This document shows, in pieces, positions 43,434-59,814 of a stretch of DNA of 64,000 nucleotides (position 1 is its first letter; each line of letters begins with the position of its first letter). The DNA is from a virus. A program made the position numbers and the translations under genes. The stretch is from IMG/VR virus record IMGVR_UViG_3300042945_001689, positions 1-64,000 of that record; one strand, written 5' to 3'. The notes beneath the pieces are model-generated. The model had not been told where the DNA came from. It saw nothing but the letters and a program-made list of their open reading frames with translations, and searched no databases.

Positions 43434-44165
43434 CTACTTGTATGTTCTTTGTTCCCAAATTTTATTTTTATATACTCCACCATTTGGTTTTCTGTATATT
43501 TTACTATTTGCAATATTTTTATAAACTATAACATTTGAATTAATTATATTGAATTCACTTTCCCAATTATCCCTTTTAAATGGAATCATTTGAACTATTG
43601 GAGTACCTTTTGGTAATATTCCAGAAAATTCTTTATTTATAAAAAATGGCATGCTTCCTGGCAACAAGACCTTATCATTATCTACAATTCCAGAAACTGT
43701 ATAAAAAGGCAACTCAAACCTATTTAAAGGATGTGTATACAATACGCTATAACCCTCTGGAACTTGAATTCCCCAATCTGCAAACCAAGCAAAATGATCA
43801 TCTCTATATCCATGTGGTGTAACAAAACCATCCATTTTGCTTCTTGGTGTACAAAAATCTTTATATTTTAAGTCTTCTATTTCAACACTTAATCCATTTT
43901 CACTTTGTATAAAATTAATATCACACGGTGTTAAATATGTGTATCCAGATCCCATTACGTCAAAAACTGCTGGACAGGCCTTCCAAGTTGGCATTTTGCC
44001 ACCATCTTGCCCAATATAAAAATCATTATTTTGTGGATTTTTAATAAATCTATCCATTTTTCGATACCACTCTGGAATAGTTTTAAGTATAGATGTTGGC
44101 TTAAATAGACTGTCTTGGTTTAACCATGGTCTATTATTAGTAAAAATTATTTTTTTAATGTCCAT
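43434..44165 (-). CDS. DUF6065-related protein
   Basis: IPEWY...TWKACPAVFD..GSGY...PEGYSVLYTHPLNR...GIVDND...KGTPIVQMIPFKRDNW. Confidence 0.55.
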   Translation of the reverse strand: MDIKKIIFTNNRPWLNQDSLFKPTSILKTIPEWYRKMDRFIKNPQNNDFYIGQDGGKMPTWKACPAVFDVMGSGYTYLTPCDINFIQSENGLSVEIEDLKYKDFCTPRSKMDGFVTPHGYRDDHFAWFADWGIQVPEGYSVLYTHPLNRFELPFYTVSGIVDNDKVLLPGSMPFFINKEFSGILPKGTPIVQMIPFKRDNWESEFNIINSNVIVYKNIANSKIYRKPNGGVYKNKIWEQRTYK

Positions 44166-44881
44166 TATTTTTTTCTTTTATCATTTGTTTTTAATCTAAT
44201 TGTTTTTAATTCATGCTTTCCTACAGGAATATCTGATTCGTCTGTAGCATTTCTGTAAAAGTGTGTCCACTCACCAACTCTATTTTTTAATTGAGACACC
44301 TCTCCATATTTTTTATTTTTAATTTCATCTTCTTTAGAAAAAACATAATCATTAATATCTAATTCATATTGGTTTATGTTTTGTAAAGATATTGGAACAA
44401 TAGCAGCAATAGGAGTTTTTGCTGGAATTGTTATAACAACATTTGGTTTTGTAACTTTGGCTGCTAGTGGCAATGGATATCTAAAAAAAGAAGTAGAAAT
44501 AAGTGTTGTGTATAAATGAATTCCATCAATAAATAGATTTGGAACTGGCATTGTTAACAAAGTTGTATTTTCATCAGTAATAAATTTAGTAAATGTATCA
44601 AAACTTAGCGTTGCACTTCTTCTATTTTCATTGACATATTTGTTACCAGATAGGATAGTTATATGACCATCCTCTTTATCTGTATCAATTCCGTCCCAAA
44701 TAAAACTAATATCTTCATCAAAACTAATTCCCCAACCTAATGTATTTGAAATTGATAACGGAAAACAATGATATGCGTGTGCATTTGACACATTGTCCAT
44801 CCAATCTCTTTTAGCAGAAATTTGAGAGATGTTTACACCAGAATTTGGCATCATGTATGCATTAAAAACTTTATTAGTCAT
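44165..44881 (-). CDS. DUF6065-like protein
   Basis: KRDWMD...HAYHCFPLSISNTLGW; paralog of 56106..56825; start MTNKVF. Confidence 0.7.
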   Translation of the reverse strand: MTNKVFNAYMMPNSGVNISQISAKRDWMDNVSNAHAYHCFPLSISNTLGWGISFDEDISFIWDGIDTDKEDGHITILSGNKYVNENRRSATLSFDTFTKFITDENTTLLTMPVPNLFIDGIHLYTTLISTSFFRYPLPLAAKVTKPNVVITIPAKTPIAAIVPISLQNINQYELDINDYVFSKEDEIKNKKYGEVSQLKNRVGEWTHFYRNATDESDIPVGKHELKTIRLKTNDKRKK

Positions 44882-45554
44882 TTGTTTCTTCATGAAGGTC
44901 TGGCCTATGATATTTTGCGCTATAATCAAGCATTGTTACTAACGAATATTTTGTTCCAGATACCACTGGCATTGCTGTATGAGGATACATATAGTTTGAT
45001 GGAAAAATATATAAATCACCTGCCTGTGGTTTAACTTTTATTCCTTGTAGTCTAAAATCCAACTCTCCACCTTCGTAATCATCATTTAAATATCCTACTA
45101 AAGAAACTACACAGTTATATGTAGGACCTTGATCATGATGCTCTTGAAAATGTTGTCCTGGACCATATTTTATAAAATTAAATGATTCCCAGTATCTTAG
45201 TTCTCCAACACGAAAAAAATGAGAGTAGTCTTTAACTGCTGGAAGTTGTAAGTCATAACAGTCCTGCCAGACTTCTTGCAGCAAAACTGATTGAACGCTT
45301 TTATCATTCAGTAAATTTTCTTTTCTATATTTAAAATCAACACAGTCTCTATATTCTGGAATTTTTTGGGCATATCCAACTAAAGCCTCTCTCCAAAAAT
45401 AATTTGGATTTTTGCCTGTTAGACTATTTTCTAGTCTACTAATTATTTTCATGTCTTTTTTAAATACATTTCTATAAACTGCTATTCCATCTGCAAGTAA
45501 TTCTTTACTATCCCAAGTTGGATTTTCAACAACATTTGGTTCAAAATTAATCAT
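44874..45554 (-). CDS. Prolyl-4-hydroxylase-like 2OG-Fe(II) oxygenase
   Basis: HHD...YLNDDYEGGEL...IFPSNYMYPH..MPVVSGTKY. Confidence 0.88.
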   Translation of the reverse strand: MINFEPNVVENPTWDSKELLADGIAVYRNVFKKDMKIISRLENSLTGKNPNYFWREALVGYAQKIPEYRDCVDFKYRKENLLNDKSVQSVLLQEVWQDCYDLQLPAVKDYSHFFRVGELRYWESFNFIKYGPGQHFQEHHDQGPTYNCVVSLVGYLNDDYEGGELDFRLQGIKVKPQAGDLYIFPSNYMYPHTAMPVVSGTKYSLVTMLDYSAKYHRPDLHEETND

Positions 45555-46285
45555 TGTTGCCTTTCTGTGTAAGTATACTTATGTCCCAATTCATTAATAT
45601 CTGTCATAATAACAATACAATATTTTGTTCCATTAACCATGTCCATTGACGCATGCTCATAAATATAATTAGATGGAAAAATTGCTATATCACCAAACTT
45701 TGGTTTATAAACTAAGTTGTCTAGCCTTGGAAAAAATAATTCTCCGCCTTCATAATCATCATTTAAATAAATTACAACAGAAACTGTTGTATTATATGCT
45801 GGACCGTGATCTGCATGAATTCTAAATTGCTGTCCTACACCTTCATACTTTACAAAATTAAATGCTTCATAATAGACCACATTAATTCCCCAATAACGAG
45901 CATAGTCATCAACACATAATTTTAAAGTATTGTAAATTTCTTCATACATATCAATTAATTCAGCATTTTGCTCATCTCTTGCTCCCAGAGAATAAGGATT
46001 ATACTTAAAATCAGAGCAGTTTCTAGCATACTTTATTGGTTGATCTGAGTTTGTAACTTTTGCTTCATTCCACTTATACCTTGTTTGTCCATTTAAATTA
46101 TTTTCTAATATACTTAAATATTTTTCACAATTTTCTTTTGAAATTGCATTATTATAGATATTTAAACCTAATCCTGGATTGCTTACTTTAATATTATTAA
46201 AAGTTTTGTCTGGCATTCTAAAAGATGCAGATTCTGACCTATCTTTTGTAAACCAAGGATTTTGTGATTCATTTACTTCAATCAT
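45551..46285 (-). CDS. Prolyl-4-hydroxylase-like 2OG-Fe(II) oxygenase
   Basis: HAD...YLNDDYEGGELFF...IFPSNYIYEH...GTKY. Confidence 0.88.
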   Translation of the reverse strand: MIEVNESQNPWFTKDRSESASFRMPDKTFNNIKVSNPGLGLNIYNNAISKENCEKYLSILENNLNGQTRYKWNEAKVTNSDQPIKYARNCSDFKYNPYSLGARDEQNAELIDMYEEIYNTLKLCVDDYARYWGINVVYYEAFNFVKYEGVGQQFRIHADHGPAYNTTVSVVIYLNDDYEGGELFFPRLDNLVYKPKFGDIAIFPSNYIYEHASMDMVNGTKYCIVIMTDINELGHKYTYTERQQ

Positions 46286-46286
46286 T

Positions 46287-46341
46287 AGCGAGTCTCCTTT
46301 ATTTAATTATAGCATAAGAATTATTTAAAGGAGACTGCGCT
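46287..46341 (-). promoter_or_regulatory. RBS-sequestering hairpin with an extended -10 promoter in its loop
   Basis: Arms AGTCTCCTTTA (46291-46301) and TAAAGGAGACT (46326-46336); TGCTATAAT at 46314-46306; SD AAAGGAG lies in the 3' arm. Confidence 0.7.
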
Positions 46342-46343
46342 TT

Positions 46344-47648
46344 TTATTCAATACTTTGATCTCTTGTGTCATATACTAACATATTTTCTGTAAAGAAGTT
46401 GTCGTATGGTTCACAGTTAATCGAATATACTGTTTCTTCATAATTTAGAACGTCTAATGAATCAATATTGACAAACCCTAACTCTTCATATGAATATACC
46501 ATATATGTGTCATCAATTGAATCAATTCTTAAGAATTTTGAAACATTATCTTTTTTAGTTAAAATATAATGCGTTTCAGAATATGCATCGCCGTTAAGAA
46601 GATATACTTTATCTACTTGCTTTGATGATACTGCATAAACTGTAGTTTCTCTTAAATTGGTTTCATTTAGGATTAAGTCTTCTGCTGTCCAATTTAACCA
46701 ATCAGCGTTATGTGCTGAGGCTTGTTCTGGAAGTTCCATAGCAATTAAAACATCTCCTACAACTATGTCTTTGGCTTCTTTTCTGCCATTGGTAGTCATG
46801 ATGCCTGTATTGCTGGCAATGGAATACTCTGAGAATCCAAACCCTGGGAAAAATGGTCCGAATGGTGGTGGGAATGGTGGTGGGAATGGTGGTGGGAATG
46901 GTGGTGGGAATGGTGGTGGGAATGGTGGTGGTGCGAAACTTGGGAAGAACGGAAAGAACGGGAAGAATGGGAAAAATGGGAAGAATGGGAAGAATGGTGA
47001 AAGTGTAGTAACGCTAGAAGTTGTTGCTCCTAATGATGCTCCATTAGCATTTGTTGCAGTAACAGTGTAAGTCTGTGAAGTTCCTGCTGTATCAGCAATA
47101 GTTGATGATGTTGCTGATGATGCTAAATCTCCAGAAGAAGTTCCGTCAGAACCAGTAACGTTATGCTTAGATAAAGCCTTTCCACCAGTGGCACCAATTG
47201 TCCAACTGATTGTGTTTTGGTTAACACCAGCACTGGCGACCGCACCTTGAGGCGCTTGTGGAACTGTTGTTGCAGTTACTGAAGAAGAAGTTGTTCCGCT
47301 TGCAGTTCCTGCAGCGTTTGTTCCTTTTACTGTAAATGTGTATGAAGTATTTGATGCTAATCCCTGAAAAGTATAAGAAGGAGTGGAAGAGCCAGTATTT
47401 ACTTCGTAAGTTGAGGGGGTTGTTGTAATGATATAAGCAGTTGCTGCTGGAGATCCCGCTGGCAATGTCCAAGTAAGGCTTACTGCTCCACCTGTGCCTG
47501 CTGCAGATGCTGCTGAAGTAGTATTAGCAGTAGCAAGATAAGGACGAGATGTTCCTACATCTGTACCACTTAAGGAAGTAACATTATCTGGTTGCAAAAA
47601 GTTGTCTTGTGCTGAAGACTTGATACCTCTTTTTTTACTAACTGCCAT
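46344..47648 (-). CDS. Two FN3-like domains + (PFF)6/(PPPF)6 repeats + C-terminal Hint domain (copy A)
   Basis: FN3 signatures (LTWT...Y...GLASNTSYTFTV..TN); repeats; Hint from Ser276 (SIASNTGIMTTNGRKEAKDIVVGD...SETH...VYSINCEPYDNFFTENMLVYD). Confidence 0.85.
   Translation of the reverse strand: MAVSKKRGIKSSAQDNFLQPDNVTSLSGTDVGTSRPYLATANTTSAASAAGTGGAVSLTWTLPAGSPAATAYIITTTPSTYEVNTGSSTPSYTFQGLASNTSYTFTVKGTNAAGTASGTTSSSVTATTVPQAPQGAVASAGVNQNTISWTIGATGGKALSKHNVTGSDGTSSGDLASSATSSTIADTAGTSQTYTVTATNANGASLGATTSSVTTLSPFFPFFPFFPFFPFFPFFPSFAPPPFPPPFPPPFPPPFPPPFPPPFGPFFPGFGFSEYSIASNTGIMTTNGRKEAKDIVVGDVLIAMELPEQASAHNADWLNWTAEDLILNETNLRETTVYAVSSKQVDKVYLLNGDAYSETHYILTKKDNVSKFLRIDSIDDTYMVYSYEELGFVNIDSLDVLNYEETVYSINCEPYDNFFTENMLVYDTRDQSIE
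46861..46932 (-). repeat. 12-bp tandem repeat x6 encoding PPPF
   Basis: AATGGTGGTGG(G) repeated on the plus strand. Confidence 0.95.
46942..46998 (-). repeat. Degenerate 9-bp tandem repeat x6 encoding PFF
   Basis: GGGAAGAA(C/T)-type units. Confidence 0.9.
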
Positions 47649-47679
47649 TTTTACTCCTCTTTTCTATTATATCAAACTA

Positions 47680-49623
47680 TTATGCTTTTAAATCTCCCAT
47701 TACAACCCAAAGATTTGCTGCTCTCTTAAATAATGTTGCTGATGACCATTGTGCACGAAGTTTTAATCCAGGAGTTGCATTTACTGTTGTTGTTCCTGGT
47801 GTTACTGCTTCAATTGTCACTTCGCCAGTATTTGTTCGAAGAATATCAATTGATGTTCCGACTGGATAATTAAGTGTAGCATCTGTTGGGATTAAAACCT
47901 TAACTGCAGTTCCACCTGTATGTGAAACTTCAATTAATGAGTCTCTTTCATTTGCTGCTGAAAGGGTGTATTCTGCTGTCTTCTGAATAATTGATGTCCG
48001 TGATGGAACACCTTCTTTTGTTTGTGTACCGTCGGTAAAAATAAATCCACCAGCAGTTGTACTAATAACTGAAGTTCCGTTTACTTTAAGATCTTTTCCT
48101 GAAGCAAGGTTGATATGCTCGGAAGATGTCCAAGAATCTGTAGAATCTACCCAGTTAAAGGTTTTGTCTGTTGCGCCTTTAAGTGTAATACCTCCGCCAT
48201 CTGCAGTTGTATCAGTAGGAGTTCCTGTATCTCCAAGAACAATGTTTTTGTCTTCAATAACAAGGTTAGTTGAGTTAAGGTTTGTTGTAGTTCCATTAAT
48301 CGTTAAGTTTCCAGAAAGAGTTAAGTCTGTTCCAGAAACGGCTCCTGTAAATGTTGCTCCAGTAAGAGAAGCCTTAGCGTCTAACTGTGTTTGAATGGCT
48401 GAAGTTACCCCATCAACGTAGTTAAGTTCTGTAGTTGATGTGGTTACACCATCAAGAATGTTAAGTTCTGCTGCTGTAGAAGTAATAGAACTTCCAGCAA
48501 TCTGTAAAGTTGTGGCGTTTACTTCGCCTGCAGAGCCATAAATAACTGCTTTGCTATTTGCAATAGTTCCTGCTGATGATCCATCTACTAAGTTAAGTTC
48601 TGCTGCTGTAGAAGTAATAGAAGTGCCAGCAATTTGTAAAGTTGTAGCATTTACTTGGCCTGCTGGACCATAAATTACTGCCTTGCTATCTACAATTGTT
48701 CCAGCAATAGATCCATCTATTAAATTAACTTCTGATGCTGTTGCAGTGACATCTGTTGCACCTGCTGAAAGAACATGTGTATGACCTGTTCCTGCTTTTC
48801 CATCAATCTGTCCTTGAATTCCAGCAGAAACTCCTTCTAGGTACCCTATTTCTGTTGAAGATAGATCTCCAATTGATGTGGTACTTGGAAGAGTTACTGT
48901 TCCAGTAAATGTAGGACCTGCTAGTGCTGCTTTAGCATCTAACTGAGTTTGAATTGCTGAGGTTACACCATTAAGATAACTAATTTCAGTATTTGATACA
49001 TCTGCAACAACTGCTTGCTTATTGTCTAATTGTGTTTGAATTGCTGAAGTAACACCAGCAAGATATCCTAATTCTGTTGATGTTGCACCAGTTGCACTAA
49101 GGTTTCCTGTTGTAACAACAGTTCCGCTTACGTTTGGAAATGTAATAGTTCTATCGGCTGTAGGATCTGTTACTGTTAAAGTGGTTTCATAATCGTTTGC
49201 TGTAGTACCTTCAAAAACAATTCCTGTTGTAGCATTAATTGTTGTGCTGTTAATAGTAGTGGTTGTACCACTTACTGTTAAATCTCCTGAAACGGTAACG
49301 TTTCCACTACCATCGGACAAAACAACTGTGCCTGTTGCATCTGGAAATGTAATTGTACGGTCTGCTGTAGGATCTGTTACGGCAAGAGTTGTTTCAAATG
49401 CGTTGTCTGTAGCACCTTCAAATGTAATGCTTGAACCAAATGATGGGTTTACTGTAGAGGATTGGTCAATAAAGTAGTCAATATTTGCCCAGTGGTTAGT
49501 GCCATCACCGATCTTAAACTTATTAGTGTCTGATTCCCATCCGATTTCACCAGCATTTAGTATTGGGTTTGCTGATGTCCATTGTGCTGCAGTACCTCTG
49601 CGTTGCTGCATTCTTGTTGCCAT
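47680..49623 (-). CDS. Tail fibre-like protein
   Basis: N-terminal MQQRRGTAAQWTSANPIL..GEIGWE.DT.KFKIGDG module; Thr/Gly-rich internal repeats; C-terminal LRAQWSSATL.KR...W...GDL domain. Confidence 0.8.
   Translation of the reverse strand: MATRMQQRRGTAAQWTSANPILNAGEIGWESDTNKFKIGDGTNHWANIDYFIDQSSTVNPSFGSSITFEGATDNAFETTLAVTDPTADRTITFPDATGTVVLSDGSGNVTVSGDLTVSGTTTTINSTTINATTGIVFEGTTANDYETTLTVTDPTADRTITFPNVSGTVVTTGNLSATGATSTELGYLAGVTSAIQTQLDNKQAVVADVSNTEISYLNGVTSAIQTQLDAKAALAGPTFTGTVTLPSTTSIGDLSSTEIGYLEGVSAGIQGQIDGKAGTGHTHVLSAGATDVTATASEVNLIDGSIAGTIVDSKAVIYGPAGQVNATTLQIAGTSITSTAAELNLVDGSSAGTIANSKAVIYGSAGEVNATTLQIAGSSITSTAAELNILDGVTTSTTELNYVDGVTSAIQTQLDAKASLTGATFTGAVSGTDLTLSGNLTINGTTTNLNSTNLVIEDKNIVLGDTGTPTDTTADGGGITLKGATDKTFNWVDSTDSWTSSEHINLASGKDLKVNGTSVISTTAGGFIFTDGTQTKEGVPSRTSIIQKTAEYTLSAANERDSLIEVSHTGGTAVKVLIPTDATLNYPVGTSIDILRTNTGEVTIEAVTPGTTTVNATPGLKLRAQWSSATLFKRAANLWVVMGDLKA
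48460..48725 (-). repeat. 132-bp (44-aa) tandem duplication within fibre gene
   Basis: ELNLVDGSSAGTIANSKAVIYG.AGEVNATTLQIAG.SITSTAA unit twice; GTTAAGTTCTGCTGCTGTAGAAGTAATAGA at 48460 and 48592. Confidence 0.85.
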
Positions 49624-49671
49624 ATTATTTTCCTCCTACAGAAAATTTCTTATTTTTATTATAACAGATAA

Positions 49672-50130
49672 TTAATTAAAGTTATCTGTTGCAACTCCTC
49701 CATCATAGGTATTTTCCCATGATGAAGTGCTATAGTCTCCTGCGCTTACTAGAACACCTGGTTCATTATAAGCACCTCCAGAAACAAATGTACTTACAAT
49801 AAGACCAGATCCATCAATTGCGGTATTGTGAATGTGGTCTTGTAATACTTCTGCATCTTCAAGAGTTGCAATTGCTACCCATTGAGATCCATAATAAACA
49901 TGAACTCTTTCTGTTAATGTGTCAAACCAAAGATTTCCATTTGATGGAGAATTTGGTGCTGTTCCGCTAACAGTTACTCCTGCACTACCCGCAACACTAT
50001 CAACATATGCTTTTGTTGCTGCATGTGTATTTTGAGTTGGAGTGGCAACTGTAACCGTTGATCCGAAAGTACCGCCATCGGCTACGACTAAGCCATGTTT
50101 TACCTTAAAATCTCTGTTTACAGTTGCCAT
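49672..50130 (-). CDS. Small fibre-associated structural protein
   Basis: MATVNRDFKVKHGL; HAATKAYVD; APNSPSNGNLWFD. Confidence 0.65.
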   Translation of the reverse strand: MATVNRDFKVKHGLVVADGGTFGSTVTVATPTQNTHAATKAYVDSVAGSAGVTVSGTAPNSPSNGNLWFDTLTERVHVYYGSQWVAIATLEDAEVLQDHIHNTAIDGSGLIVSTFVSGGAYNEPGVLVSAGDYSTSSWENTYDGGVATDNFN

Positions 50131-50142
50131 TTAATCTCCTTT

Positions 50143-52429: not shown

Positions 52430-52435
52430 ACCTAG

Positions 52436-52444: not shown

Positions 52445-52469
52445 TAATTATTTTAATAGTTTTATAATT

Positions 52470-52697
52470 TTATAAAATATAGTTGCTTACACCAATCATT
52501 TGTAAGGGAATTGGTGGCGCATTATTAGCGTTAAAGGCTATAATATCTATATCAGTTATTCTTACTCTAAATGGTAAAAATTCATTTATTGTTATCCCTC
52601 TGTCAATCTTTTCTTCAATAGAAACTTTAGGAAATGTGTGTTGATCAATTGATTTTAATATTGTTGTTTGTTTATCAAATATTGCAACAGAAGCCAT
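52470..52697 (-). CDS. Hypothetical protein, probably structural
   Basis: 75-aa ORF coupled to its upstream gene. Confidence 0.6.
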   Translation of the reverse strand: MASVAIFDKQTTILKSIDQHTFPKVSIEEKIDRGITINEFLPFRVRITDIDIIAFNANNAPPIPLQMIGVSNYIL

Positions 52698-53098
52698 TAA
52701 CTTGTTACGTCTTCTAAAACAACCATTTGACCTCTAGCAACTGTCCAAACTCGTGTTGCATCAGATAGTTGAACATCAAAAACATCTCCAGTTTTTAATT
52801 GTGCTGACTGTACAGATGTTAATTTAACTGTAAATTCTCCAGTTTCATCTCCCGCGTCTGGGGCAGGCGTTATTGTAAATACTGTACCAGCAGAATCTTG
52901 ATCAAAATTATTTTCTATATCTGGTCTTCTAAATCTTGCAGCAATTGTCCAGTTGGCTATTACAAGTGGATTTTTAGCATCATCTGTAACATATATCCTA
53001 AATGCAACGGTATCTCCCTTTACAATTGTCCATTTTACTAATGGCGGGGCATCACCAATATCATAAACAGATTGTCCAGCACCTCTATAATTAGCCAT
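52697..53098 (-). CDS. BppU-N-like small structural/adaptor protein
   Basis: WTIVKGDT...FDVQL...WTVARG; paralog of 60389..60778 and 61623..62009. Confidence 0.55.
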   Translation of the reverse strand: MANYRGAGQSVYDIGDAPPLVKWTIVKGDTVAFRIYVTDDAKNPLVIANWTIAARFRRPDIENNFDQDSAGTVFTITPAPDAGDETGEFTVKLTSVQSAQLKTGDVFDVQLSDATRVWTVARGQMVVLEDVTS

Positions 53099-53104
53099 AT
53101 AAGA

Positions 53105-53113
53105 ATTATAACA
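53105..53113 (-). promoter_or_regulatory. Extended -10 promoter, leaderless
   Basis: TGTTATAAT 6 nt before ATG 53098. Confidence 0.7.
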
Positions 53114-53136
53114 TAATTACAAGAATATGTAAAAAG

Positions 53137-53166
53137 TTGACAAAAAACAAAACTTCATGTTATACT
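53137..53166 (+). promoter_or_regulatory. Sigma70/SigA-type promoter of the transglycosylase gene
   Basis: TTGACA-18 nt-TATACT with TG extension. Confidence 0.75.
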
Positions 53167-53215
53167 GGTAGGTAACACCATAAAAAATGGTGTTTTGTTT
53201 TCTAAGGAGGAAACT

Positions 53216-53782
53216 ATGATTAAATTTATCGAAAGAAACAAAGAGGTCATTAGTATACTCGGCATACTGACTTTAGTAACGACATTGTCAAACGTTGCTA
53301 ATGCTGAAACACGAATAAGTGACAAAAATAATTTGAGTATAGAACAGGCTCAGGAGCAGGAAAACGCCTCGAAAGAGGTTTTTTTGGTTTCTAAAGAAGA
53401 AAATAATAAAATTAACAAAAAATACAAATATGGAACCCCCCTTGAAAAAGACGAACTAATTAAAATATTAAAGCAAGTAGGCTTTAAAGGATATTCACTA
53501 AAGGTTGCTTGGGCAACGGTAATGAAAGAATCTATGGGCACTCCTAACTCTTGGAATCCTAATAGACAGACTGGAGATAATTCTTATGGCCTATTTCAAA
53601 TCAATATGCTTGGAGGACTGGGCGAAGAAAGAAGAAGCAAGTTTAATCTAAAGTCTAACGAAGATCTGTTTGATCCAGTTAGAAATGCAGAAATCGCTTA
53701 TCATATGAGTAATGGTGGTGAAGATTGGTCTGCCTGGAAAGGCATTACCTGGAAAACTAAAGAGTGGATGGAAAGATATTAA
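53216..53782 (+). CDS. Secreted lysozyme-fold lytic transglycosylase (SLT-like)
   Basis: Signal-like VISILGILTLVTTLSNVANA; catalytic MKES...GDNSYGLFQIN...W..W; SD AAGGAGG. Confidence 0.85.
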   Translation: MIKFIERNKEVISILGILTLVTTLSNVANAETRISDKNNLSIEQAQEQENASKEVFLVSKEENNKINKKYKYGTPLEKDELIKILKQVGFKGYSLKVAWATVMKESMGTPNSWNPNRQTGDNSYGLFQINMLGGLGEERRSKFNLKSNEDLFDPVRNAEIAYHMSNGGEDWSAWKGITWKTKEWMERY

Positions 53783-54783
53783 TTTTTAATATCTTGTATT
53801 ATCTCTAAAAATCCTTCTGCCCAATGCATATGTTTATGAACTCCACTATGCCTTGCCTTTTTTGAATAATACTTTTCATCTTCTATGTCTGTTGATGTAT
53901 CAAAATTTTTTGGATACAAATGTCTTAAATGTTCGTGTTTATTACATTCGTCTAAATATACATCAAGTCCATCATCACTTTTGTACCATCTATTAGACTT
54001 TAAATAAACAAAATTATTTGATACATTTTCTTGTTGTGTTATTAAGTCATACAAAAAACCACTCCACGTTGACCATAAAAATAAAATTTTTGCTTCTTTA
54101 CAATACTGCTCTAACATTTTAATATATTGATATGAGTAAAAAAATGGTAAATCTGGAGAAAAAACATCTTCAGAATAATGTGGTTTTTTAGAATATTTTT
54201 CTGATTCTTGATAAATTACGTGAGTTGAAGACAACATACTCTCTGGATGTACTGGAAAATAAGTATTTTTTGTTATTAATGTTTCAGTATTTACTGGAAC
54301 CATAAATCTATAAAAATCTGGAAACAAACATAAAAGAGTTTTTGGATGACCATATTCTTCAAAATATTTATATATATTATTTATAATTGCAACAACAGAG
54401 TCTCCTGGTTGACTTATATTTGAATACTTTACATTTAAAGCCTTTGCTACTTGACTGCCCCATATTTCTTTTTCTGGCAATCCCAACCCAAATGTAAAAG
54501 AACAGCCACCAAAAACAAGTTCATTGTTTTCATTAAAATCTTTTCCTCTAAAACCTAAATTATTTATAATATATGAATTAGACTGGTCCAATAAAAATTC
54601 TGTTTCTGTATAATGTCCCGTCCATAGCAAACCATTTGGATACAAACCTGGTTTTCTTTTATTTGTAATAATCCAATCATTTAAAAATAAATGTTTAACA
54701 TTTTCATGATCAACTACATCATTTCCAATTAAACCTAAGTCACTTATAGTTTCTTTTATAGTTTTAGTATATGTATTTTTCAT
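53779..54783 (-). CDS. SGNH-hydrolase-like protein
   Basis: NNLGFRG...FGGCSFTFGLGL...W...NISQPGDS; C-terminal RHSGVHKH. Confidence 0.55.
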   Translation of the reverse strand: MKNTYTKTIKETISDLGLIGNDVVDHENVKHLFLNDWIITNKRKPGLYPNGLLWTGHYTETEFLLDQSNSYIINNLGFRGKDFNENNELVFGGCSFTFGLGLPEKEIWGSQVAKALNVKYSNISQPGDSVVAIINNIYKYFEEYGHPKTLLCLFPDFYRFMVPVNTETLITKNTYFPVHPESMLSSTHVIYQESEKYSKKPHYSEDVFSPDLPFFYSYQYIKMLEQYCKEAKILFLWSTWSGFLYDLITQQENVSNNFVYLKSNRWYKSDDGLDVYLDECNKHEHLRHLYPKNFDTSTDIEDEKYYSKKARHSGVHKHMHWAEGFLEIIQDIKN

Positions 54784-54833
54784 ATTTTTTATCCTTTTTT
54801 TTAAATATTTTTTTAAATTTATACAAATAATAT

Positions 54834-55424
54834 TTAATTTTTATTAACATATTTATTTCTAATTTCATTTTCAAATATTCTGTATTTAGTTGGAATCCAA
54901 AAAGATGGTGTGGTATATCTTGTGCCTTTTGTTATCTCCCGCACACCGTGTATATACATTGTGTTTGATGGGAAAAATACCAATGTACCAGCACTAGGTT
55001 TAAAGTCTAAGTTATGATCTGGGAAGTATATCTCTCCGCCTTCGTAGTCATCGTTCAAATATATAACAGCCCCATAGTCAACTATAAATGCTTCATTTGG
55101 ATGTCCTTCTGGATCTTCTCCATCTGCATGTAGTGGTTGAAACTCTCCTGCGTCCCATCTTCTTATTCCAGCAGAATTTGTTTCAAGAGGTCTTCCAAAA
55201 TAAAGTTCTATCTCTTGCTGTACTCTATCAATTGCTTTTTTTAGTATGGCATGGGCCTCTGGCTTTTCAGAAGCAAGATTTCTTGTTACTTTGTCTGGTA
55301 TTCCAGCCATTGAATTAGAACCCCAAGAAATTGTATCGTCTATTGATGATAATACAATGTCTAAATCTTTCTTTGAAACAAAATTTTCTTTTATAACAAT
55401 ATTTTTTGTAGATCCTATTTTCAT
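54834..55424 (-). CDS. Prolyl-4-hydroxylase-like 2OG-Fe(II) oxygenase
   Basis: QPLHADGE...YLNDDYEGGEIYF...HGV..ITKGTRY. Confidence 0.88.
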   Translation of the reverse strand: MKIGSTKNIVIKENFVSKKDLDIVLSSIDDTISWGSNSMAGIPDKVTRNLASEKPEAHAILKKAIDRVQQEIELYFGRPLETNSAGIRRWDAGEFQPLHADGEDPEGHPNEAFIVDYGAVIYLNDDYEGGEIYFPDHNLDFKPSAGTLVFFPSNTMYIHGVREITKGTRYTTPSFWIPTKYRIFENEIRNKYVNKN

Positions 55425-55433
55425 TTTTTCTCC

Positions 55434-55592
55434 TTAATTAGGTAACTCTGATTGCTCTGCTATTTCTTTTACTTTGTCAAAGTTTGATGCATCAACCATT
55501 GAAGATAAAACATAACATATCCATTGATAAGATGACTTTTCGCAATACCCCTTTGACTGCATAATTTTAGCAATATCTTCTATAATTTCCAT
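55434..55592 (-). CDS. Small hypothetical protein, 52 aa
   Basis: Not in ORF track: MEIIEDIAKIMQSKGYCEKSSYQWICYVLSSMVDASNFDKVKEIAEQSELPN; TAATG overlap upstream; stop abuts the next SD. Confidence 0.6.
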   Translation of the reverse strand: MEIIEDIAKIMQSKGYCEKSSYQWICYVLSSMVDASNFDKVKEIAEQSELPN

Positions 55593-56113
55593 TACTTATA
55601 CTCCAAAAATATGTTAATTGCATATCTTGTTCCAGAATGAACCTGATGCGCTATGTGCATATATGGGTAGTTTGATGGAAATAATACCATAGAATTTTTT
55701 ACTGGCTTAACTTTAATGTCAAAGTTGCAAAATTCTATCTCTCCGCCTTCGTAGTCATCGTTTAAATATATAACGCAACTAGTAACTCTGTTAGAAACAT
55801 GCTTTGAGCCATCATCATAGTGCATTACATACTTTTCTCCAGGCTCGTATTTTAATGCCTCTATTGTAAGATATGTTAGTTCTGGAAGAAAATATAAATC
55901 ACGATATGCACTTAAAGAACTATGCAGCGCCTCATCTATAATTTTAAAAATTTCTTTTTGCAACTCTTTGTCTTGAAAGTATATGACTGAATTAGATCTA
56001 TCTTCTGTTTTTACATTTAGTGGTTTTGTCCACTCATACTTATTAATTTCTTTAATTAATAAATCTGAATTATTCAAAACATTATAATAAAACTCTATTC
56101 CGTTTTTATTCAT
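55592..56113 (-). CDS. Prolyl-4-hydroxylase-like 2OG-Fe(II) oxygenase
   Basis: HYD...YLNDDYEGGEIEF...FPSNYPYMH...SGTRY. Confidence 0.88.
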   Translation of the reverse strand: MNKNGIEFYYNVLNNSDLLIKEINKYEWTKPLNVKTEDRSNSVIYFQDKELQKEIFKIIDEALHSSLSAYRDLYFLPELTYLTIEALKYEPGEKYVMHYDDGSKHVSNRVTSCVIYLNDDYEGGEIEFCNFDIKVKPVKNSMVLFPSNYPYMHIAHQVHSGTRYAINIFLEYK

Positions 56114-56825
56114 TTTTTTTCCTTATGTCTTTGGTATGCAACTTTATTTTTTTTACTTCGTGTGATCCAACAGAATTGCCAAATTGATCAGTAGCGCTTC
56201 GATAAAAATCAGAAAACTTTGGAATTTTATTATTTTCTAATATTACATTTCCATAGTCTGTTACTTTTTTATGGTATTCATTAATATTATGTGGATTATT
56301 ATTTAAAGTAATTGTAGAATTTTGTAAATTTGTTAAAGATATTGGCAAAACAGAAATAATTGGAGAGTTTGCTTTAAACGTAATAACAGTGTTTGGCCTT
56401 GTAATTTTCCAAGATACTGGTATAGGTTTTTGCCAAAAACTAGAACTAATTAAGTTTGTTAACGGAACTGCGCCATCAATGTCTAAATTTGGTGGACCAA
56501 AAAACAATAAACTAGTTTCTGGATTTGTTTCAAAAAACCAACCTATATTAAAAATTAGTGTTGCAGTTCCTCTGTTAGTGTCAACAAATTCTTTACCTTT
56601 TAAAACCGTTATGTGATTTCCTTCAGAAGAGTCGTTTCCATCCCAAACAACAGAAATATCTTTGGGGAATGAAAATCCCCATCCCATTTGATTTGTTAAC
56701 GATAAAGGAAAACACCTGTATGCATGTTGATCAAATGTTTTATCCATCCAGTCTCTTTTTAAAGAAAGTTGTTCTATTCTTGCACCTAAACCTGGATTTA
56801 CTTCATATGCATTGATTTCATACAT
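56106..56825 (-). CDS. DUF6065-like protein
   Basis: KRDWMD...HAYRCFPLSLTNQMGW. Confidence 0.72.
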   Translation of the reverse strand: MYEINAYEVNPGLGARIEQLSLKRDWMDKTFDQHAYRCFPLSLTNQMGWGFSFPKDISVVWDGNDSSEGNHITVLKGKEFVDTNRGTATLIFNIGWFFETNPETSLLFFGPPNLDIDGAVPLTNLISSSFWQKPIPVSWKITRPNTVITFKANSPIISVLPISLTNLQNSTITLNNNPHNINEYHKKVTDYGNVILENNKIPKFSDFYRSATDQFGNSVGSHEVKKIKLHTKDIRKKNE

Positions 56826-57488
56826 TTATTGTTTTTGCCTTAGTGGAGAGTTTGCTCCGTGTACCCTATCATTATAGTCAAACATTGTTACTGCAGAATA
56901 TTTTATTCCTTCTTTTACAGGCAAAGCAGCATGAGAATATAAAAAGTTTGATGGGAACAAAACAATATCTCCCTCTTCTGGAGTATAAGTATAGTTTATG
57001 TATGGGAAAAACAATTCTCCTCCAGTATAGTTGTCATTTAAATACATAACTGTAGAAACAGTACATACATAACTAAAACCATGATCTGAATGAACCTGAA
57101 AGTGTTGATCTTTTCCATATCTAACAAAATTAACTGCTTCTTGATACTCTAAGTTTAAATTAAAAAGTGAAGAATAATGTTTTACACATTCCTGTAGTCG
57201 TTCATCTATGTCAAAGTATATTTTTCTTAAATCTGACATAGTTGCTCTTGGGTTATTTACAAAATCATTTTTTCTTACTTTAAAGTCTACGCAATCTCTA
57301 TAATCTTTTCTTGTTTCATAATCACCAACTTGTGCTTCGCTCCATTTGAAAAAATTATCGCCATGTTTTTCAATAACATCTTCAAGTCGCTGAACAAGAT
57401 TTAAGTCTTTATTAAGCGCATTTTTATAAACGAATACAGCAGGCGCAGGATTTTCTATAGTGGTTGTTTCTATAAAGTTAGATAACAT
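56826..57488 (-). CDS. Prolyl-4-hydroxylase-like 2OG-Fe(II) oxygenase
   Basis: HSD...YLNDNYTGGELFF...FPSNFLYSH...GIKY; paralog of 44874..45554 (shared YRDCVDFK, VTM.DY). Confidence 0.88.
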   Translation of the reverse strand: MLSNFIETTTIENPAPAVFVYKNALNKDLNLVQRLEDVIEKHGDNFFKWSEAQVGDYETRKDYRDCVDFKVRKNDFVNNPRATMSDLRKIYFDIDERLQECVKHYSSLFNLNLEYQEAVNFVRYGKDQHFQVHSDHGFSYVCTVSTVMYLNDNYTGGELFFPYINYTYTPEEGDIVLFPSNFLYSHAALPVKEGIKYSAVTMFDYNDRVHGANSPLRQKQ

Positions 57489-57512
57489 TTAATCTCCTTT
57501 TTGGTCAATATA

Positions 57513-57522
57513 TAGTATACTA
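57513..57522. promoter_or_regulatory. Palindromic bidirectional -10 element
   Basis: TAGTATACTA gives TATACT on both strands within a 39-bp gap between divergent genes. Confidence 0.6.
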
Positions 57523-57527
57523 CATAT

Positions 57528-58112
57528 ATGGACAATATGTATAAGGTACAACCTGGCTATTTTGGGGACTCTGTTGATAATATCATTGTTTTAGAAAATT
57601 TTATAAGTCCAGATGACTTAGATAAATTTTACTTTTACTCTAAATCAATAGAAAATTTTTTATCCATACCTGATGACAACTGGGACAACAGGGTTCATAG
57701 TTCAGAGTTATTTAAAAATAGTAATAAGGCATTATTTCTTAAACTTTTAGAATATCAAAAAAAATTAAAAATAGAAATAGAAAAAAGATTTAACTTTGTT
57801 TTACAAGAAAATTCACCATCAATAGTTCTTTGGAGACCTGGAGACGATCAGCCTCCTCATGCAGACAAACAGGAGCAAGATGGTAATCCAAATTCTTATC
57901 CTGAAAATGATGTGGCATCCCTAATGTATATAAACGACAATTATGATGGTGGAGAAATATACTTTACTAACCAGGATATAACCATAAAGCCCAAGGCTGG
58001 TTCTGCAATATTTTTTCCTGGAGATATACATTATACTCATGGGGTAACAAAAGTATTAAATAACAACAGATATACATCGCCAGCATTTTGGCGTGTAAAA
58101 AACTTTAATTAA
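57528..58112 (+). CDS. Prolyl-4-hydroxylase-like 2OG-Fe(II) oxygenase, inverted orientation
   Basis: QPPHADK...YINDNYDGGEIYF...HGV...RYTSPAFW; similar to 54834..55424. Confidence 0.88.
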   Translation: MDNMYKVQPGYFGDSVDNIIVLENFISPDDLDKFYFYSKSIENFLSIPDDNWDNRVHSSELFKNSNKALFLKLLEYQKKLKIEIEKRFNFVLQENSPSIVLWRPGDDQPPHADKQEQDGNPNSYPENDVASLMYINDNYDGGEIYFTNQDITIKPKAGSAIFFPGDIHYTHGVTKVLNNNRYTSPAFWRVKNFN

Positions 58113-59014
58113 ATATTATCCCTAACATCAAAAACCAACATATTTTCTGTAAAGAAATTATCATATGGTTCGCAATTGATTGAATAAACCGTATCTTCAT
58201 ATTCTATAATATCGAACACTTCTATTGGAACAAACTGTAGATCAGCAAAAGAGTATACAAAATATGAACTATCAATTTCTGATGTTTGTATAAATTTAAC
58301 AACATTATCTTTTTTAGTTAAAATATAATGCGTTCCCGAATATGCATCTCCGTTAATTATATAAAGTGTACCGATAGGTCTTGAGGTAATAGAAACAACC
58401 TCTGTTTCTCTTAAATTGGTTTCATCTAATAATAAATCTTCTTTACTCCAAGTTGTCCAATCAGAAACATTGTTGGTATCTAAATCCATAGCAACCAAAA
58501 CGTCTCCTACTACAATATCTTTAGCGTCTTTTCTTCCATTAATAGTTATAATTCCAGTATTGCTTGCAATGGAATATTCTGAATAGACTCCAAACCCTGG
58601 GAAAAATGGTGGTATTGGGAACGGTGGTGGGAACGGTGGTGGGGCAACGGCGAACGGTGGTGGGAACGGTGGTGGGAACGGTGGTGGGAACGGTGGTGGT
58701 GCTGGGGCTACTGGAGTAACAGAATTACTTGCTGCAGATTCTAACGATGTAGCAACACCATTTCCTAGTTTTACTTTAAATGTATAGGCTGTTCCATTTG
58801 ACAAACCACTAACAGTTATTGGAGAAGTTGAAGATGTTCCTGTTATATCTGATGGAGTTGAAGTTGCAGTGTAAGTTGTTCCAATTGGTTTGCCTAAATA
58901 GGCTGGTGCTGTAAATGAAACTGTTGCTGTTTCATTACCTTCTGTTGCAGTTCCAATTGTTGGAGTTCCTGGTTGTATTCCTCCACTACCTGAAGATATT
59001 GGTGGTAATGGCAT
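58109..59014 (-). CDS. FN3-like domain + (PPPF)4+2 repeats + C-terminal Hint domain (copy B)
   Basis: PGTPTIGTA...VSFTAP...GLSNGTAYTF.V...SAASNSVTP; Hint from Ser148 (SIASNTGIITINGRKDAKDIVVGD...SGTH...VYSINCEPYDNFFTENMLVFD); start by TAATG overlap. Confidence 0.85.
   Translation of the reverse strand: MPLPPISSGSGGIQPGTPTIGTATEGNETATVSFTAPAYLGKPIGTTYTATSTPSDITGTSSTSPITVSGLSNGTAYTFKVKLGNGVATSLESAASNSVTPVAPAPPPFPPPFPPPFPPPFAVAPPPFPPPFPIPPFFPGFGVYSEYSIASNTGIITINGRKDAKDIVVGDVLVAMDLDTNNVSDWTTWSKEDLLLDETNLRETEVVSITSRPIGTLYIINGDAYSGTHYILTKKDNVVKFIQTSEIDSSYFVYSFADLQFVPIEVFDIIEYEDTVYSINCEPYDNFFTENMLVFDVRDNI
58619..58700 (-). repeat. Interrupted 12-bp tandem repeat (4+2) encoding PPPF
   Basis: AACGGTGGTGG(G) units on the plus strand. 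Confidence 0.92.
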
Positions 59015-59814
59015 TATGCACTCAGATCGCCAATTGCAATCCAAGTATTGGTTGCTCGTTTAATTAATGTACAAGATGAATACTGTGTTCTTAATTTTGC
59101 TGCATTTGAAGAAACTTGAGGTGTGCAATTTAGTGTAACTCCTGCAGTGACTACTACTGTTGTTGCTCCAGTTCCAGTTTGAATAATTGTAATTTGTGAA
59201 CCAATTGCAAATGCTTGAGTTGCATTAAGTGGAATAGTAACTGTATTTGCAGTTGATGTTAAATTCATTTCAATAATTTTATATGCATCTGACAAAACCA
59301 ATGCGTGATTTGCTGTTTTTTCTAAAATAGTAAAATCTAATGCAGATTTAGTATCTTGAACTGCTTTGACTGCAGTTGGTGTTGCTGCTTTAACTGATGA
59401 AGTCTCTGATGTTGAATCTGACAATTGAACAACTCCAGGTGTTGAAACTGATGCTGCTGTAGGTGCAGCCCATTTAAGACCAAATGTGCCCTGTGTTGAG
59501 TCTGCAGTTAAAATATGTCCATCGCTACCAACTGTTAAATTATCTAAATTATTATTTGATGTCCCTACTAAAAGATCGCCTTTAGCGTCAATGACAGTTT
59601 CTTCTACAGCATTTGTTAAAGTTGCATCAATTGCATCAATTCTTGTATCTATATCATCTAGATACTTTGAAATACCTGCGGTTGCTGTGCCTTCTGGCTC
59701 TGCTTCTTGTCCCCAATGATAATATTTAAGTGCAACCTGTATGTCGGCTGGATCAGCCATTGCTGGAATTTTTGCTAGGGGATACTTAGAACTTCCTATA
59801 TTTGTGGCTGCCAT
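59014..59814 (-). CDS. Short fibre-like structural protein
   Basis: DAKGDLLVG module; GVVQLSD...AATPTAVK tail-fibre repeat; C-terminal LRTQYSSCTL.KR...W...GDL domain. Confidence 0.7.
   Translation of the reverse strand: MAATNIGSSKYPLAKIPAMADPADIQVALKYYHWGQEAEPEGTATAGISKYLDDIDTRIDAIDATLTNAVEETVIDAKGDLLVGTSNNNLDNLTVGSDGHILTADSTQGTFGLKWAAPTAASVSTPGVVQLSDSTSETSSVKAATPTAVKAVQDTKSALDFTILEKTANHALVLSDAYKIIEMNLTSTANTVTIPLNATQAFAIGSQITIIQTGTGATTVVVTAGVTLNCTPQVSSNAAKLRTQYSSCTLIKRATNTWIAIGDLSA

Follow-up and report, generated by a model that had tools for sequence, protein, structure and literature searches.

A duplicated tail-fibre cassette of a lake phage that places Hint-capped Pro/Phe-repeat proteins beside prolyl-hydroxylase-like oxygenases

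The window analysed here is a stretch of 64,000 nucleotides (positions 1 to 64,000 of IMG/VR record IMGVR_UViG_3300042945_001689) from the 108-kb genome of a whiB-carrying siphophage, a lake phage of Actinobacteria. All open reading frames described in an earlier note on this DNA were recovered at the same coordinates. They form two paralogous cassettes on the minus strand, with the exception of the oxygenase gene at 57528. In each cassette a fibre gene is followed by a gene for an FN3-(PFF/PPPF)-Hint protein (the precursor), and then by genes for P4H-like 2OG-Fe(II) oxygenases and a DUF6065 protein. The features are:

41284-43317: ribonucleotide reductase (RNR)
43434-44165, minus: p243, phrog_7084 (1.3e-34), abutting the RNR gene
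44165-44929, minus: DUF6065 protein A, PF19541 (1.1e-25)
44874-45554, minus: P4H-like 2OG-Fe(II) oxygenase A2, 226 aa, PF13640 (2.9e-15)
45551-46285, minus: P4H-like 2OG-Fe(II) oxygenase A1, 244 aa, PF13640 (3.4e-12), HAD...H...K motif
46344-47648, minus: precursor A, 434 aa; N-terminal region, two FN3-like domains, (PFF)6, (PPPF)6, FFPGFGFSEY linker, C-terminal Hint
46347-46823, minus: Hint domain A; Ser276 as residue 1, block-B His360, end at ...NMLVYD plus 7 aa
46860-46997, minus: Pro/Phe repeat tract A; six PFF at 46944-46997, six PPPF at 46860-46931
47680-49623, minus: tail-fibre protein A, 647 aa; Pfam Mtd_N at the N-terminus (2.7e-13), many tail-fibre PHROGs, a C-terminal domain of ~105 aa in common with fibre B
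53779-54783, minus: 334-aa protein at the end of cassette B, with a homologue in the related contig L025
54834-55424, minus: P4H-like oxygenase B5, PF13640 (1.6e-9)
55592-56113, minus: P4H-like oxygenase B4, PF13640 (7.6e-17)
56106-56825, minus: DUF6065 protein B, PF19541 (4.9e-36)
56826-57488, minus: P4H-like oxygenase B2, PF13640 (6.3e-13)
57528-58112, plus: P4H-like oxygenase B1, PF13640 (5.7e-10), convergent with precursor B
58109-59014, minus: precursor B, 301 aa from the ATG at 59014; one FN3-like domain, PPPF in groups of four and two, FFPGFGVYSEY linker, Hint
58112-58573, minus: Hint domain B; Ser148, His229
59014-59814, minus: tail-fibre protein B, 266 aa; Phage_fiber_2 (7.5e-7), PHROG tail matches

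The repeated gene order that the note had pointed out was confirmed by blastp, in which four gene pairs were paralogous: the precursors (63% identity over 164 aa of the Hint region, E 9e-74), the DUF6065 proteins (46%, E 6e-67), oxygenases A2 and B2 (42%, E 6e-56), and the C-termini of the fibres (40% over 108 aa, E 1e-11). Judged from these alignments, the paralogy of the cassettes is far past chance. In all relatives examined, the Hint gene comes immediately after a fibre gene. The stop codon of fibre B and the start codon of precursor B overlap in a TAATG junction, and precursor B is translationally coupled to the fibre.

The translations of both precursors bear out the described architecture of FN3, six PPPF units, an FFPGFG(F/VY)SEY linker, and Hint, the Hint domain starting at Ser276 in A and Ser148 in B. 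The Pfam fn3 match is above the cut-off in A (34.4 bits) and just below it in B (23.3 bits). The six PPPF units of B are split 4 + 2 (58619-58699). In A the array consists of six perfect tandem copies of a 12-bp unit (Tandem Repeats Finder); a 95%-identical relative (L001) carries five intact PPPF and one degenerate APPF versus the six in the window. The label "RiPP-like" does not suit these proteins, because they are 300-434 aa long and contain folded FN3 domains. Their proposed location at the fibre tip is not supported.

The Hint assignment holds for both precursors. An AF2 model of Hint A (pLDDT 86) was compared with the PDB using Foldseek, and the top folds were BIL2, the C. thermocellum BIL domain, (mini-)inteins, and Hedgehog (E 3e-7 to 1e-4; top matches 6y75, 2lwy, and 1at0). 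A profile match to the gp41-1 intein places Ser1 on the intein Cys1.

All six oxygenases matched PF13640 (2OG-FeII_Oxy_3) above the cut-off, and intact HxD...H triads as well as the Lys/Arg are readable in their translations. Lysyl hydroxylase LH3 was the top PDB sequence match of A2, with B. anthracis P4H and PBCV-1 P4H also among the best; B4 matched B. anthracis P4H (6e-7) and PBCV-1 P4H (3e-5). By sequence, the oxygenases are thus closest to collagen-type prolyl/lysyl hydroxylases; the note had called them a prolyl-hydroxylase cluster. It had also counted six of seven oxygenases in the window beside the precursors; six do lie in the two cassettes, but they are all that the window holds, and the seventh (at 82235) is outside it. 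Oxygenase B1 adjoins precursor B and is convergent with it on the plus strand, unlike the rest of the cassette; this orientation is kept in the relatives L006 and L007.

DUF6065 protein B models as a dUTPase-like-fold protein. Residues 1-166 form a dUTPase-like beta fold (AF2 pLDDT 66), and in a wide VIA-align search the top 22 chains were all dUTPase, dCTP deaminase, or herpesvirus dUTPase-related (Z 10.5-5.6, the next below 5). Elsewhere DUF6065 is fused to 2OG-FeII_Oxy_3 and to Cupin_8/JmjC (Atlas), and it would work with the oxygenases here. The gene at 43434 (p243), which had been called DUF6065-like, is a remote relative of DUF6065 (hhalign probability 61%, E 8e-5) but gives no Pfam DUF6065 match. 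Of 43 loci, 38 carry it beside the Hint gene. Homologues occur next to the RNR gene in the cyanomyovirus S-RIM4, and in haloviruses they neighbour the genes for thymidylate synthase and DNA polymerase. Because these neighbours are nucleotide-metabolism genes in unrelated viruses, membership of p243 in the system is doubtful, and it may belong to the adjoining nucleotide-metabolism module instead. The 53779 protein had been described as SGNH-like; this is unsupported, since Pfam, NCBIfam, PHROG, and PDB sequence searches gave no match.

A survey of ~100 contigs of related phages revealed a constant core, a fibre gene followed by an FN3-aromatic repeat-Hint gene, in which the repeat chemistry is highly variable (PFF, PPPF, FGAFGA, GFSHYGG, and others). 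In most members the repeat is poor in or free of proline and no oxygenase is present, so hydroxylation appears to be a clade-specific addition rather than the core of the system, as the note had it. An oxygenase was found within 1.5 kb of the Hint gene in 21 of 25 proline-rich loci versus 1 of 38 proline-poor loci. The mean number of oxygenases was 0, 1.0, and 3.7 at proline fractions of <0.1, 0.1-0.25, and >=0.25, respectively (Spearman rho 0.78, n=43). The co-occurrence that the note had suggested looking for is therefore present across relatives, but it loses significance when phylogeny is taken into account: the proline-rich, oxygenase-bearing state falls mostly in one clade, leaving ~3 independent contrasts (~2 concordant, 0 discordant; sign test p ~0.5). 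With so few contrasts, the link between proline-rich repeats and oxygenases is suggestive, not proven. Among rearranged, distant lineages, an oxygenase lies between the fibre and Hint genes in L101, L103, and L105 (PYYNPYSNPPPYDN repeat) and 1.1 kb downstream in L079 (PPGFF type). Within the PFF clade, the nested lineages L005 and L009 carry xPF repeats, and both the oxygenases and DUF6065 have been lost from them. Three proline-rich rows have no oxygenase nearby (L017, L005, and the B-type of L043), and single oxygenases 6-9 kb away also occur in phages with proline-free repeats.

The best explanation, to which we give a probability of roughly 0.55 as a whole, is that the two cassettes are diverged, old copies of one cassette within the distal tail-fibre module, and that the oxygenases hydroxylate the Pro/Phe tract of its Hint-capped protein. 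The core cassette (the fibre and the FN3/aromatic-repeat/Hint protein) is widespread among related lake phages, and in the proline-rich clade of this phage it has gained several collagen-type (P4H-like) 2OG-Fe(II) oxygenases together with DUF6065. Going by the comparative association, the oxygenases most likely hydroxylate the prolines of the repeat, either before or after removal of the Hint domain, and would in this way tune a sticky or extended virion appendage. Of the pathway drawn in the earlier note, the Hint fold, the P4H-like oxygenases, and their association with proline-rich repeats are retained, but not the RiPP-like character, the fibre tip, the membership of p243, or hydroxylation as the core.

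Throughout the phage group the genes follow the order SLT-...-fibre-Hint-p243-RNR-portal, and the oxygenases sit in accessory-gene hot spots beside RNR and SLT. For this reason the adjacency of fibre, Hint, and oxygenase genes could be inherited synteny, with oxygenases gathering at the borders of the module. The oxygenases, DUF6065, and p243 would then be an accessory island in recombination hot spots bordering the fibre module (before RNR and before SLT), with nucleotides or DNA, small metabolites, or host proteins as targets, and the link to proline would be a by-product of shared ancestry. This possible, if unlikely, account agrees with the non-significant contrast test, with the presence, in proline-free phages, of oxygenases ahead of SLT and in the interval from RNR to g1199, with the modelled fold of DUF6065, with the nucleotide-metabolism neighbours of p243, and with the failure to find a canonical dUTPase in four such genomes tested. 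However, the number of oxygenases rises with proline content, the pairing survives in the rearranged genomes L079 and L103, where the oxygenase lies amid fibre genes and far from RNR, and the oxygenases, DUF6065, and the PFF repeat disappeared jointly in L005 and L009. The nearest relatives of the oxygenases are protein hydroxylases, the Pfam dUTPase model has no match in this genome, and the fusions of DUF6065 and p243 are with protein-modifying types (P4H-like, JmjC, and, in one p243 relative, the PF11397 'GlcNAc' glycosyltransferase).

In the preferred reading, hydroxylation of the Pro/Phe tract, the Hint domain most likely performs the first step of its chemistry only. The Tyr|Ser bond would undergo an N-to-O acyl shift, and resolution of the resulting ester, by water or another nucleophile, would release an ~18-kDa Hint cap and leave an FN3-repeat fragment ending in ...SEY. 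Cleavage at the N-terminal Y|S junction alone is expected, because the domain has neither the terminal His-Asn nor a C-extein; in an alignment of 19 sequences the proteins end 5-10 aa past an ...LV(F/Y)D or ...LVLES motif. Activity is not certain, since the block-F Asp is replaced by Ser. Together with the replaced His-Asn, and with Pfam Intein_splicing scores that are weak and below the cut-off for both precursors (8e-5 for A), this would fit a catalytically dead Hint, a mere folded C-terminal domain serving, for example, receptor binding or assembly, with the full-length protein as the mature form. We regard this as quite improbable. Ser1, Thr at +5, and the block-B His (in THYILTKK) are invariant in the same alignment at only 37-70% identity, which is hard to account for without acyl-shift chemistry, and Hedgehog and BIL domains cleave although they lack splicing residues (PMC8616854).

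Least probable is that the oxygenases modify fibres or other structural proteins of the virion rather than the Pro/Phe tract: they do lie inside a block of at least five fibre-like genes, and the top match of A2 is to an LH3-type lysyl hydroxylase, but fibres occur in all relatives, yet oxygenases track the proline content of the Hint-protein repeat, and the translated fibres are rich in Thr, Ser, Ala, and Gly, with no proline-rich tract seen.

No publication describing the combined system of fibre, FN3-repeat-Hint protein, and oxygenases was found in the literature; its parts resemble several known systems. The C-terminal intramolecular chaperones of phage tailspikes and fibres (Peptidase_S74 type) self-cleave. 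As is predicted for the phage Hint, the C-terminal domain of a tail appendage protein removes itself after its task; however, fold and chemistry are unrelated (a Ser-Lys dyad versus the Hint acyl shift), and no S74 match was seen in the Pfam search of the cassette proteins. In the Skp1 pathway (PhyA and Gnt1) and in plant extensin-type Hyp-glycoproteins, a P4H is paired with a glycosyltransferase that acts on hydroxyproline. The fusion of a p243 relative to PF11397, which we take to be the Skp1 Hyp-GlcNAc transferase family, and a PF11397-like gene beside two oxygenases in L021 recall this arrangement, whereas this phage genome has no match to PF11397 or GT2, the two glycosyltransferase families searched.

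Hedgehog/Hog and BIL domains have the same fold, and in them Hint serves N-terminal cleavage or transfer and not splicing, as predicted for the phage proteins. It has been shown that BIL2 of Tetrahymena BUBL transfers its N-terminal flank to lysine as an isopeptide (PMC8616854). The phage Hint differs in having Ser for Cys1, in lacking a sterol-recognition region, in ending just past the Hint domain, and in its cargo, a putative FN3 and aromatic-repeat virion protein. Multi-copy 2OG-Fe(II) oxygenase genes have been described in plastic regions of marine cyanomyoviruses, where they are commonly classed as auxiliary metabolic genes (PMC3037559). Many paralogous PF13640-type genes in plastic regions of an aquatic phage are found here as well, but a plausible protein substrate is encoded next to them, and they are more numerous where it contains more proline. 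A further parallel is chlorovirus PBCV-1, whose P4H hydroxylates viral proline-rich repeats, (Pro-Ala-Pro-Lys)n (PMC3634087). Both viruses encode P4H or P4H-like enzymes of the collagen type (PDB 5c5t is among the sequence matches), and the PBCV-1 genome also has proline-rich repeat proteins. The system predicted here differs in belonging to a bacteriophage, in having six paralogous enzymes in the two cassettes (up to nine in relatives) with the candidate substrate gene directly adjacent, and in combining a Pro/Phe repeat (PFF, PPPF) with a Hint cap and a DUF6065 partner.

The two precursor genes belong to an extensive family of phage tail-module proteins, not described before, that is defined by this work and joins FN3 and an aromatic low-complexity repeat to a C-terminal Hint domain of the Ser type. 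The duplicated cassette in which they lie, reported in an earlier note, proved to be real, and every ORF listed there was found in its place; the observation was thus confirmed, while its interpretation was supported in part only. The features to which the text refers are the following.

Features of the two cassettes and their surroundings (window numbering)
43434-44165, p243 gene (phrog_7084), adjoining ribonucleotide reductase (RNR)
44165-44929, minus strand, DUF6065 protein of cassette A
46344-47648, minus strand, precursor A (434 aa; Hint Ser1 = Ser276)
46860-46931, minus strand, PPPF array of precursor A
46944-46997, minus strand, PFF array of precursor A
48460-48741, minus strand, tandem duplication in fibre A
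53195-53782, plus strand, lysozyme-like (SLT_3) gene
53779-54783, gene labelled "SGNH-like" in the earlier note
56106-56825, minus strand, DUF6065 protein of cassette B
58109-59014, minus strand, precursor B (301 aa; Hint Ser1 = Ser148)
59012-59016, minus strand, overlap of fibre B and precursor B

The cassettes are diverged paralogues, as shown by the identities of the paired precursors (63% over the Hint region, E 9e-74), DUF6065 proteins (46%), oxygenases A2 and B2 (at 44874 and 56826; 42%) and fibre C-termini (40%). Pfam searches detected six PF13640 oxygenases and two DUF6065 proteins in the cassettes, fibre signatures in both fibre genes, and fn3 together with a weak intein-splicing match in both precursors. 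Against a cut-off of 25, the fn3 score was 34.4 bits for precursor A and 23.3 bits, slightly below, for precursor B; PF00041 is carried by many homologues of the precursors. The oxygenase at 57528 lies on the plus strand, which corrects the earlier note. Seven oxygenases had been counted in the window, where only six were found; the seventh PF13640 oxygenase is located outside it, at genome positions 82235-82465 (+), distant from both cassettes. The SGNH-like label could not be supported, as searches of Pfam, NCBIfam, PHROGs and PDB sequences gave no SGNH or other family match for that gene. The stop of fibre B overlaps the start of precursor B as TAATG, which suggests translational coupling of the two genes. 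A 132-bp stretch of fibre A is repeated in tandem (2.1 copies, 85% match) and encodes a "...AGTIA/VDSKAVIYG...ATTLQIAG" unit that is also found in a 608-aa fibre-like protein. The SLT_3 gene lies on the opposite strand between the two fibre blocks, and its place and orientation are kept in nearly all related contigs.

Viral and metagenome contigs were scanned for the family, which yielded about 100 loci. All of them have FN3, a tract of low complexity with roughly one-third aromatic residues, and a Ser-type Hint domain. The tract takes many forms (PFF/PFFPPFF, PPPF, xPF, FGFTPF, FGAFGA, GFSHYGG/GFYHxF, PPGFFA and PYYNPYSNPPPYDN), and the gene order is kept group-wide: SLT(-), five fibre-module genes, fibre, Hint protein, p243, RNR, a 1,200-aa protein and portal. 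Because the tract varies within a fixed architecture, the fibre and the FN3-aromatic repeat-Hint protein are the constant core, and proline richness is one variant of the family. Members from uncultured phages are already in UniProt, where they are listed as uncharacterised "Fibronectin type III" proteins. Nearly all related contigs come from lake metagenomes, and a megablast search of the whole region against isolated phages gave no match. In the Yersinia jumbo phage fHe-Yen9-02 (L109), the tail-fibre block includes a "virion structural protein" (2996-4438) whose C-terminal end resembles a Hint domain, with 29% identity over 145 aa; tail proteins capped in this way may therefore be more widespread. 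Different genes fill the island that follows the Hint gene in clades whose repeats are of the His/Tyr/Gly or FG type (L066 14013-16185, L021 13837-14664, L079 10694-11161), namely a sugar epimerase/dehydratase and a weak GT2 match, together with a PF11397-like glycosyltransferase and a Pol-beta-type nucleotidyltransferase.

The virus record is 108 kb long and is rated 99% complete; its first 64 kb form the window. Among the products encoded there are the portal, a head protease, a major head protein and a tape-measure protein of 2,533 aa, and the virus is therefore a long-tailed siphophage; genes for DNA polymerase, helicase and RNR are also present. A WhiB-family gene outside the window (genome 95839-96012; 48.5 bits) points to an actinobacterial host. 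A weak second WhiB match was seen at window 2368-2430. One 222-kb metagenome contig carries the same locus twice, 112 kb apart (L053 and L054), and probably represents two copies of a phage genome of about 111 kb assembled head to tail.

The repeat counts and the FFPGFG(F/VY)SEY linker agreed with the earlier account. The PPPF array of precursor A is a perfect tandem of six 12-bp units. In a 95%-identical relative (L001), five PPPF units are intact and the sixth is replaced by a degenerate APPF. This difference fits unstable repeat DNA, and repeat length appears to change fast, in the manner of a contingency locus. A plus-strand ORF at window 46657-47070 (137 aa, GNGGG and GKN repeats) arises from the Pro/Phe tract read on the opposite strand and was rejected as a gene. 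The description of the pathway as RiPP-like was not upheld: with 301-434 aa, folded FN3 domains and a site in the virion gene block, the precursors are large folded virion-module proteins rather than short leader/core precursors, and a RiPP precursor reading was ruled out. The position at the fibre tip given in the earlier note is putative.

The AF2 model of the Hint domain (pLDDT 86, pTM 0.83) matched 58 PDB chains at E<=1e-3, all of them Hint domains, with TM up to 0.81. The best matches were Tetrahymena BIL2, the Clostridium (C. thermocellum) BIL domain, mini-inteins and Hedgehog; in the comparison of BIL motifs, the structural best matches are BIL domains and the sequence-profile match to 2lwy is weak (E 0.23). 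An alignment of 19 Hint domains from the window and related loci showed an invariant Ser1, a Thr five residues on, the His of THYILTKK and a CEP.DNFFT block. The beta-fold, the N-terminal nucleophile Ser and the block-B (T/S)xxH His of Hint domains are all present. Ser1 stands opposite Cys1 of the gp41-1 intein, since the profile alignment to that intein starts one residue past both. With Ser1 and the block-B His in place, the residues required for the first acyl shift are therefore available. The 19 domains terminate in LV(Y/F)D or LVLES, with 5-10 further residues before the end of the protein; a terminal (His-)Asn, a C-extein with +1 Cys/Ser/Thr and an endonuclease insert are absent. The missing C-terminal Asn and C-extein rule out a true intein, and a Hedgehog protein was rejected because no sterol-recognition region, or any other sequence, follows the Hint domain, and residue 1 is Ser. 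The requirements for splicing or C-terminal cleavage are lacking. We infer that it acts, and is cleaved, as a Hog/BIL-type N-terminal autoprocessing module.

All six oxygenases of the cassettes scored 39-62 bits against PF13640 (cut-off 27), and all translations contain an intact HxD...H iron triad with Lys/Arg at the 2OG position. Their nearest solved relatives by sequence are the B. anthracis P4H, the PBCV-1 P4H and lysyl hydroxylase LH3, which fits a role as protein hydroxylases. It has been shown that the PBCV-1 P4H hydroxylates that virus's own Pro-rich repeats (PMC3634087).

Co-occurrence and adjacency of repeat-Hint genes and oxygenases, proposed earlier as a check on the pathway, gave a strong raw association but few independent events. 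The Hint gene had an oxygenase at a distance of 1.5 kb or less in 21/25 distinct loci with a proline fraction of at least 0.25 in the repeat tract, vs 1/38 below this value (raw Fisher p 9e-12). The mean number of oxygenase genes was 0, 1.0 and 3.7 in the low (<0.1), middle (0.1-0.25) and high (>=0.25) proline classes (rho 0.78, n=43). In the Hint-domain tree, most Pro-rich rows form one clade. Independent contrasts of Pro-rich state and oxygenase adjacency number three, about two of them concordant and none discordant, and with only three the phylogenetically independent contrast test did not reach significance. The adjacency could be incidental if oxygenases simply collect in accessory-gene hot spots; in favour of this, single oxygenases also occur in other hot spots of phages with proline-free repeats, and the module borders at which the oxygenase islands lie tend to collect accessory genes. 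The concordant cases are informative here. Two loci inside the PFF clade (L005, L009) have xPF repeats and have lost both oxygenases and DUF6065. One very distant, rearranged lineage (L101, L103, L105) has PYYNP...PPPYDN repeats and carries an oxygenase and p243 between the fibre and Hint genes; its FGAFGA sister L102 has none. In a further locus (L079), an oxygenase follows the gene of a PPGFF-type protein at a distance of 1.1 kb. A link between the oxygenases and the proline-rich repeat is probable; for prolyl hydroxylation of a peptide substrate by these enzymes, the association with proline-rich repeats is indirect evidence.

The DUF6065 proteins scored 90.9 bits (44165-44929) and 124.8 bits (56106-56825) against PF19541 (cut-off 26.6). 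Among the loci surveyed, DUF6065 is confined to the PFF/PPPF clade. In the ESM Atlas it is mostly viral; viral members occur fused to 2OG-FeII_Oxy_3 and bacterial ones to Cupin_8/JmjC, which indicates a functional tie to oxygenases. The structural model, of middling quality only (pLDDT 66), places residues 1-166 in the dUTPase/dCTP deaminase superfamily: the 22 top chains are all dUTPases, dCTP deaminases or herpesvirus dUTPase-related proteins (Z 10.5-5.6), followed by a clear gap. This is the first fold assignment (dUTPase-like, from a model) for DUF6065, together with its fusion partners. The herpesvirus dUTPase-related proteins show that such a fold can be non-enzymatic. Neither a canonical dUTPase (PF00692 HMM) nor PF11397 or GT2 was matched in the phage genome. 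No paper mentioning DUF6065 was found, tblastn of DUF6065 against phages gave no match, and a word-index search for longer, fused forms returned none. The genome-collection scan detected it on two short MAG contigs only, and these gave no bacterial gene context.

The gene at 43434-44165, described earlier as DUF6065-like, is not a member of the Pfam family and has no Pfam match; hhalign (probability 61%, E 8e-5) and its Atlas neighbours indicate that p243 is a remote relative of DUF6065. Profiles of both gave no useful match among PDB sequences. The p243 family (2,862 cluster representatives) is far wider than the Hint family. It follows the Hint gene in 38/43 loci and is also kept together with it in rearranged genomes. 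A homologue in cyanophage S-RIM4 (L108 4968-5762) lies 0.8 kb after nrdAB, and those in haloviruses (e.g., HSTV-2, L026 5851-6720) lie beside thymidylate synthase and DNA polymerase; in three unrelated groups of viruses, the family thus adjoins RNR or thymidylate synthase. Canonical dUTPase is absent from all four p243-carrying genomes tested, and strings resembling dUTPase motifs (AxFD, PxNR, SGIIDxD, GTPxxQxIP) were seen by eye only, in one alignment. p243 may be an unrecognised nucleotide enzyme. Contrary to such a role, a PF11397 "GlcNAc" glycosyltransferase is the fusion partner of one relative, and islands of other clades contain the sugar epimerase/dehydratase, the weak GT2 match and a PF11397-like gene beside two oxygenases; PDB sequence searches with the fusion and with the PF11397-like ORF of L021 gave no informative match. 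In view of these conflicting contexts, p243 is not counted as an established part of the system.

It has been shown that Tetrahymena BIL2 uses its thioester to form isopeptide bonds with target lysines (PMC8616854). As BIL2 is the top structural match, a ligation role is conceivable for the phage Hint domain, though we regard it as unlikely. The Tyr|Ser ester would be captured, as in BUBL/BIL2, by a lysine or hydroxyl on the fibre, another virion protein or a host envelope component, and the FN3-anchored aromatic tail would be welded on covalently with no need for ATP. Tail chemistry would then be tuned in each phage clade by an enzyme set of its own, with hydroxylases and DUF6065 for Pro/Phe tails and sugar enzymes in other clades. 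If true, these proteins would represent a new class of enzyme-tailored, self-installing phage adhesins.

The reading preferred here is that of an autoprocessing Hint domain and a Pro-rich repeat probably linked to the oxygenases. Genes for 2OG-Fe(II) oxygenases are very numerous in aquatic phages and are routinely listed as auxiliary metabolic genes and, to our knowledge, without a known substrate. In the present system a candidate substrate gene directly adjoins the oxygenases, and oxygenase number tracks its proline content, which makes the substrate question testable. If confirmed, this would represent post-translational hydroxylation of bacteriophage virion proteins and a new use of Hint autoprocessing.

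A literature search for the whole combination found no paper, and the papers found on "Hint domain", phage and tail fibre concern terminase inteins only. The union of an aromatic-repeat tail-module protein, a Ser-type Hint cap, arrays of P4H-like enzymes and a dUTPase-fold partner was not found in the literature and is in this sense new. The kinds of component are already known, from the viral P4H and Pro-rich repeats of PBCV-1 and from Hog/BIL autoprocessing. What the precursors have in common with RiPP pathways is limited to the idea of enzyme-tailored repeats.
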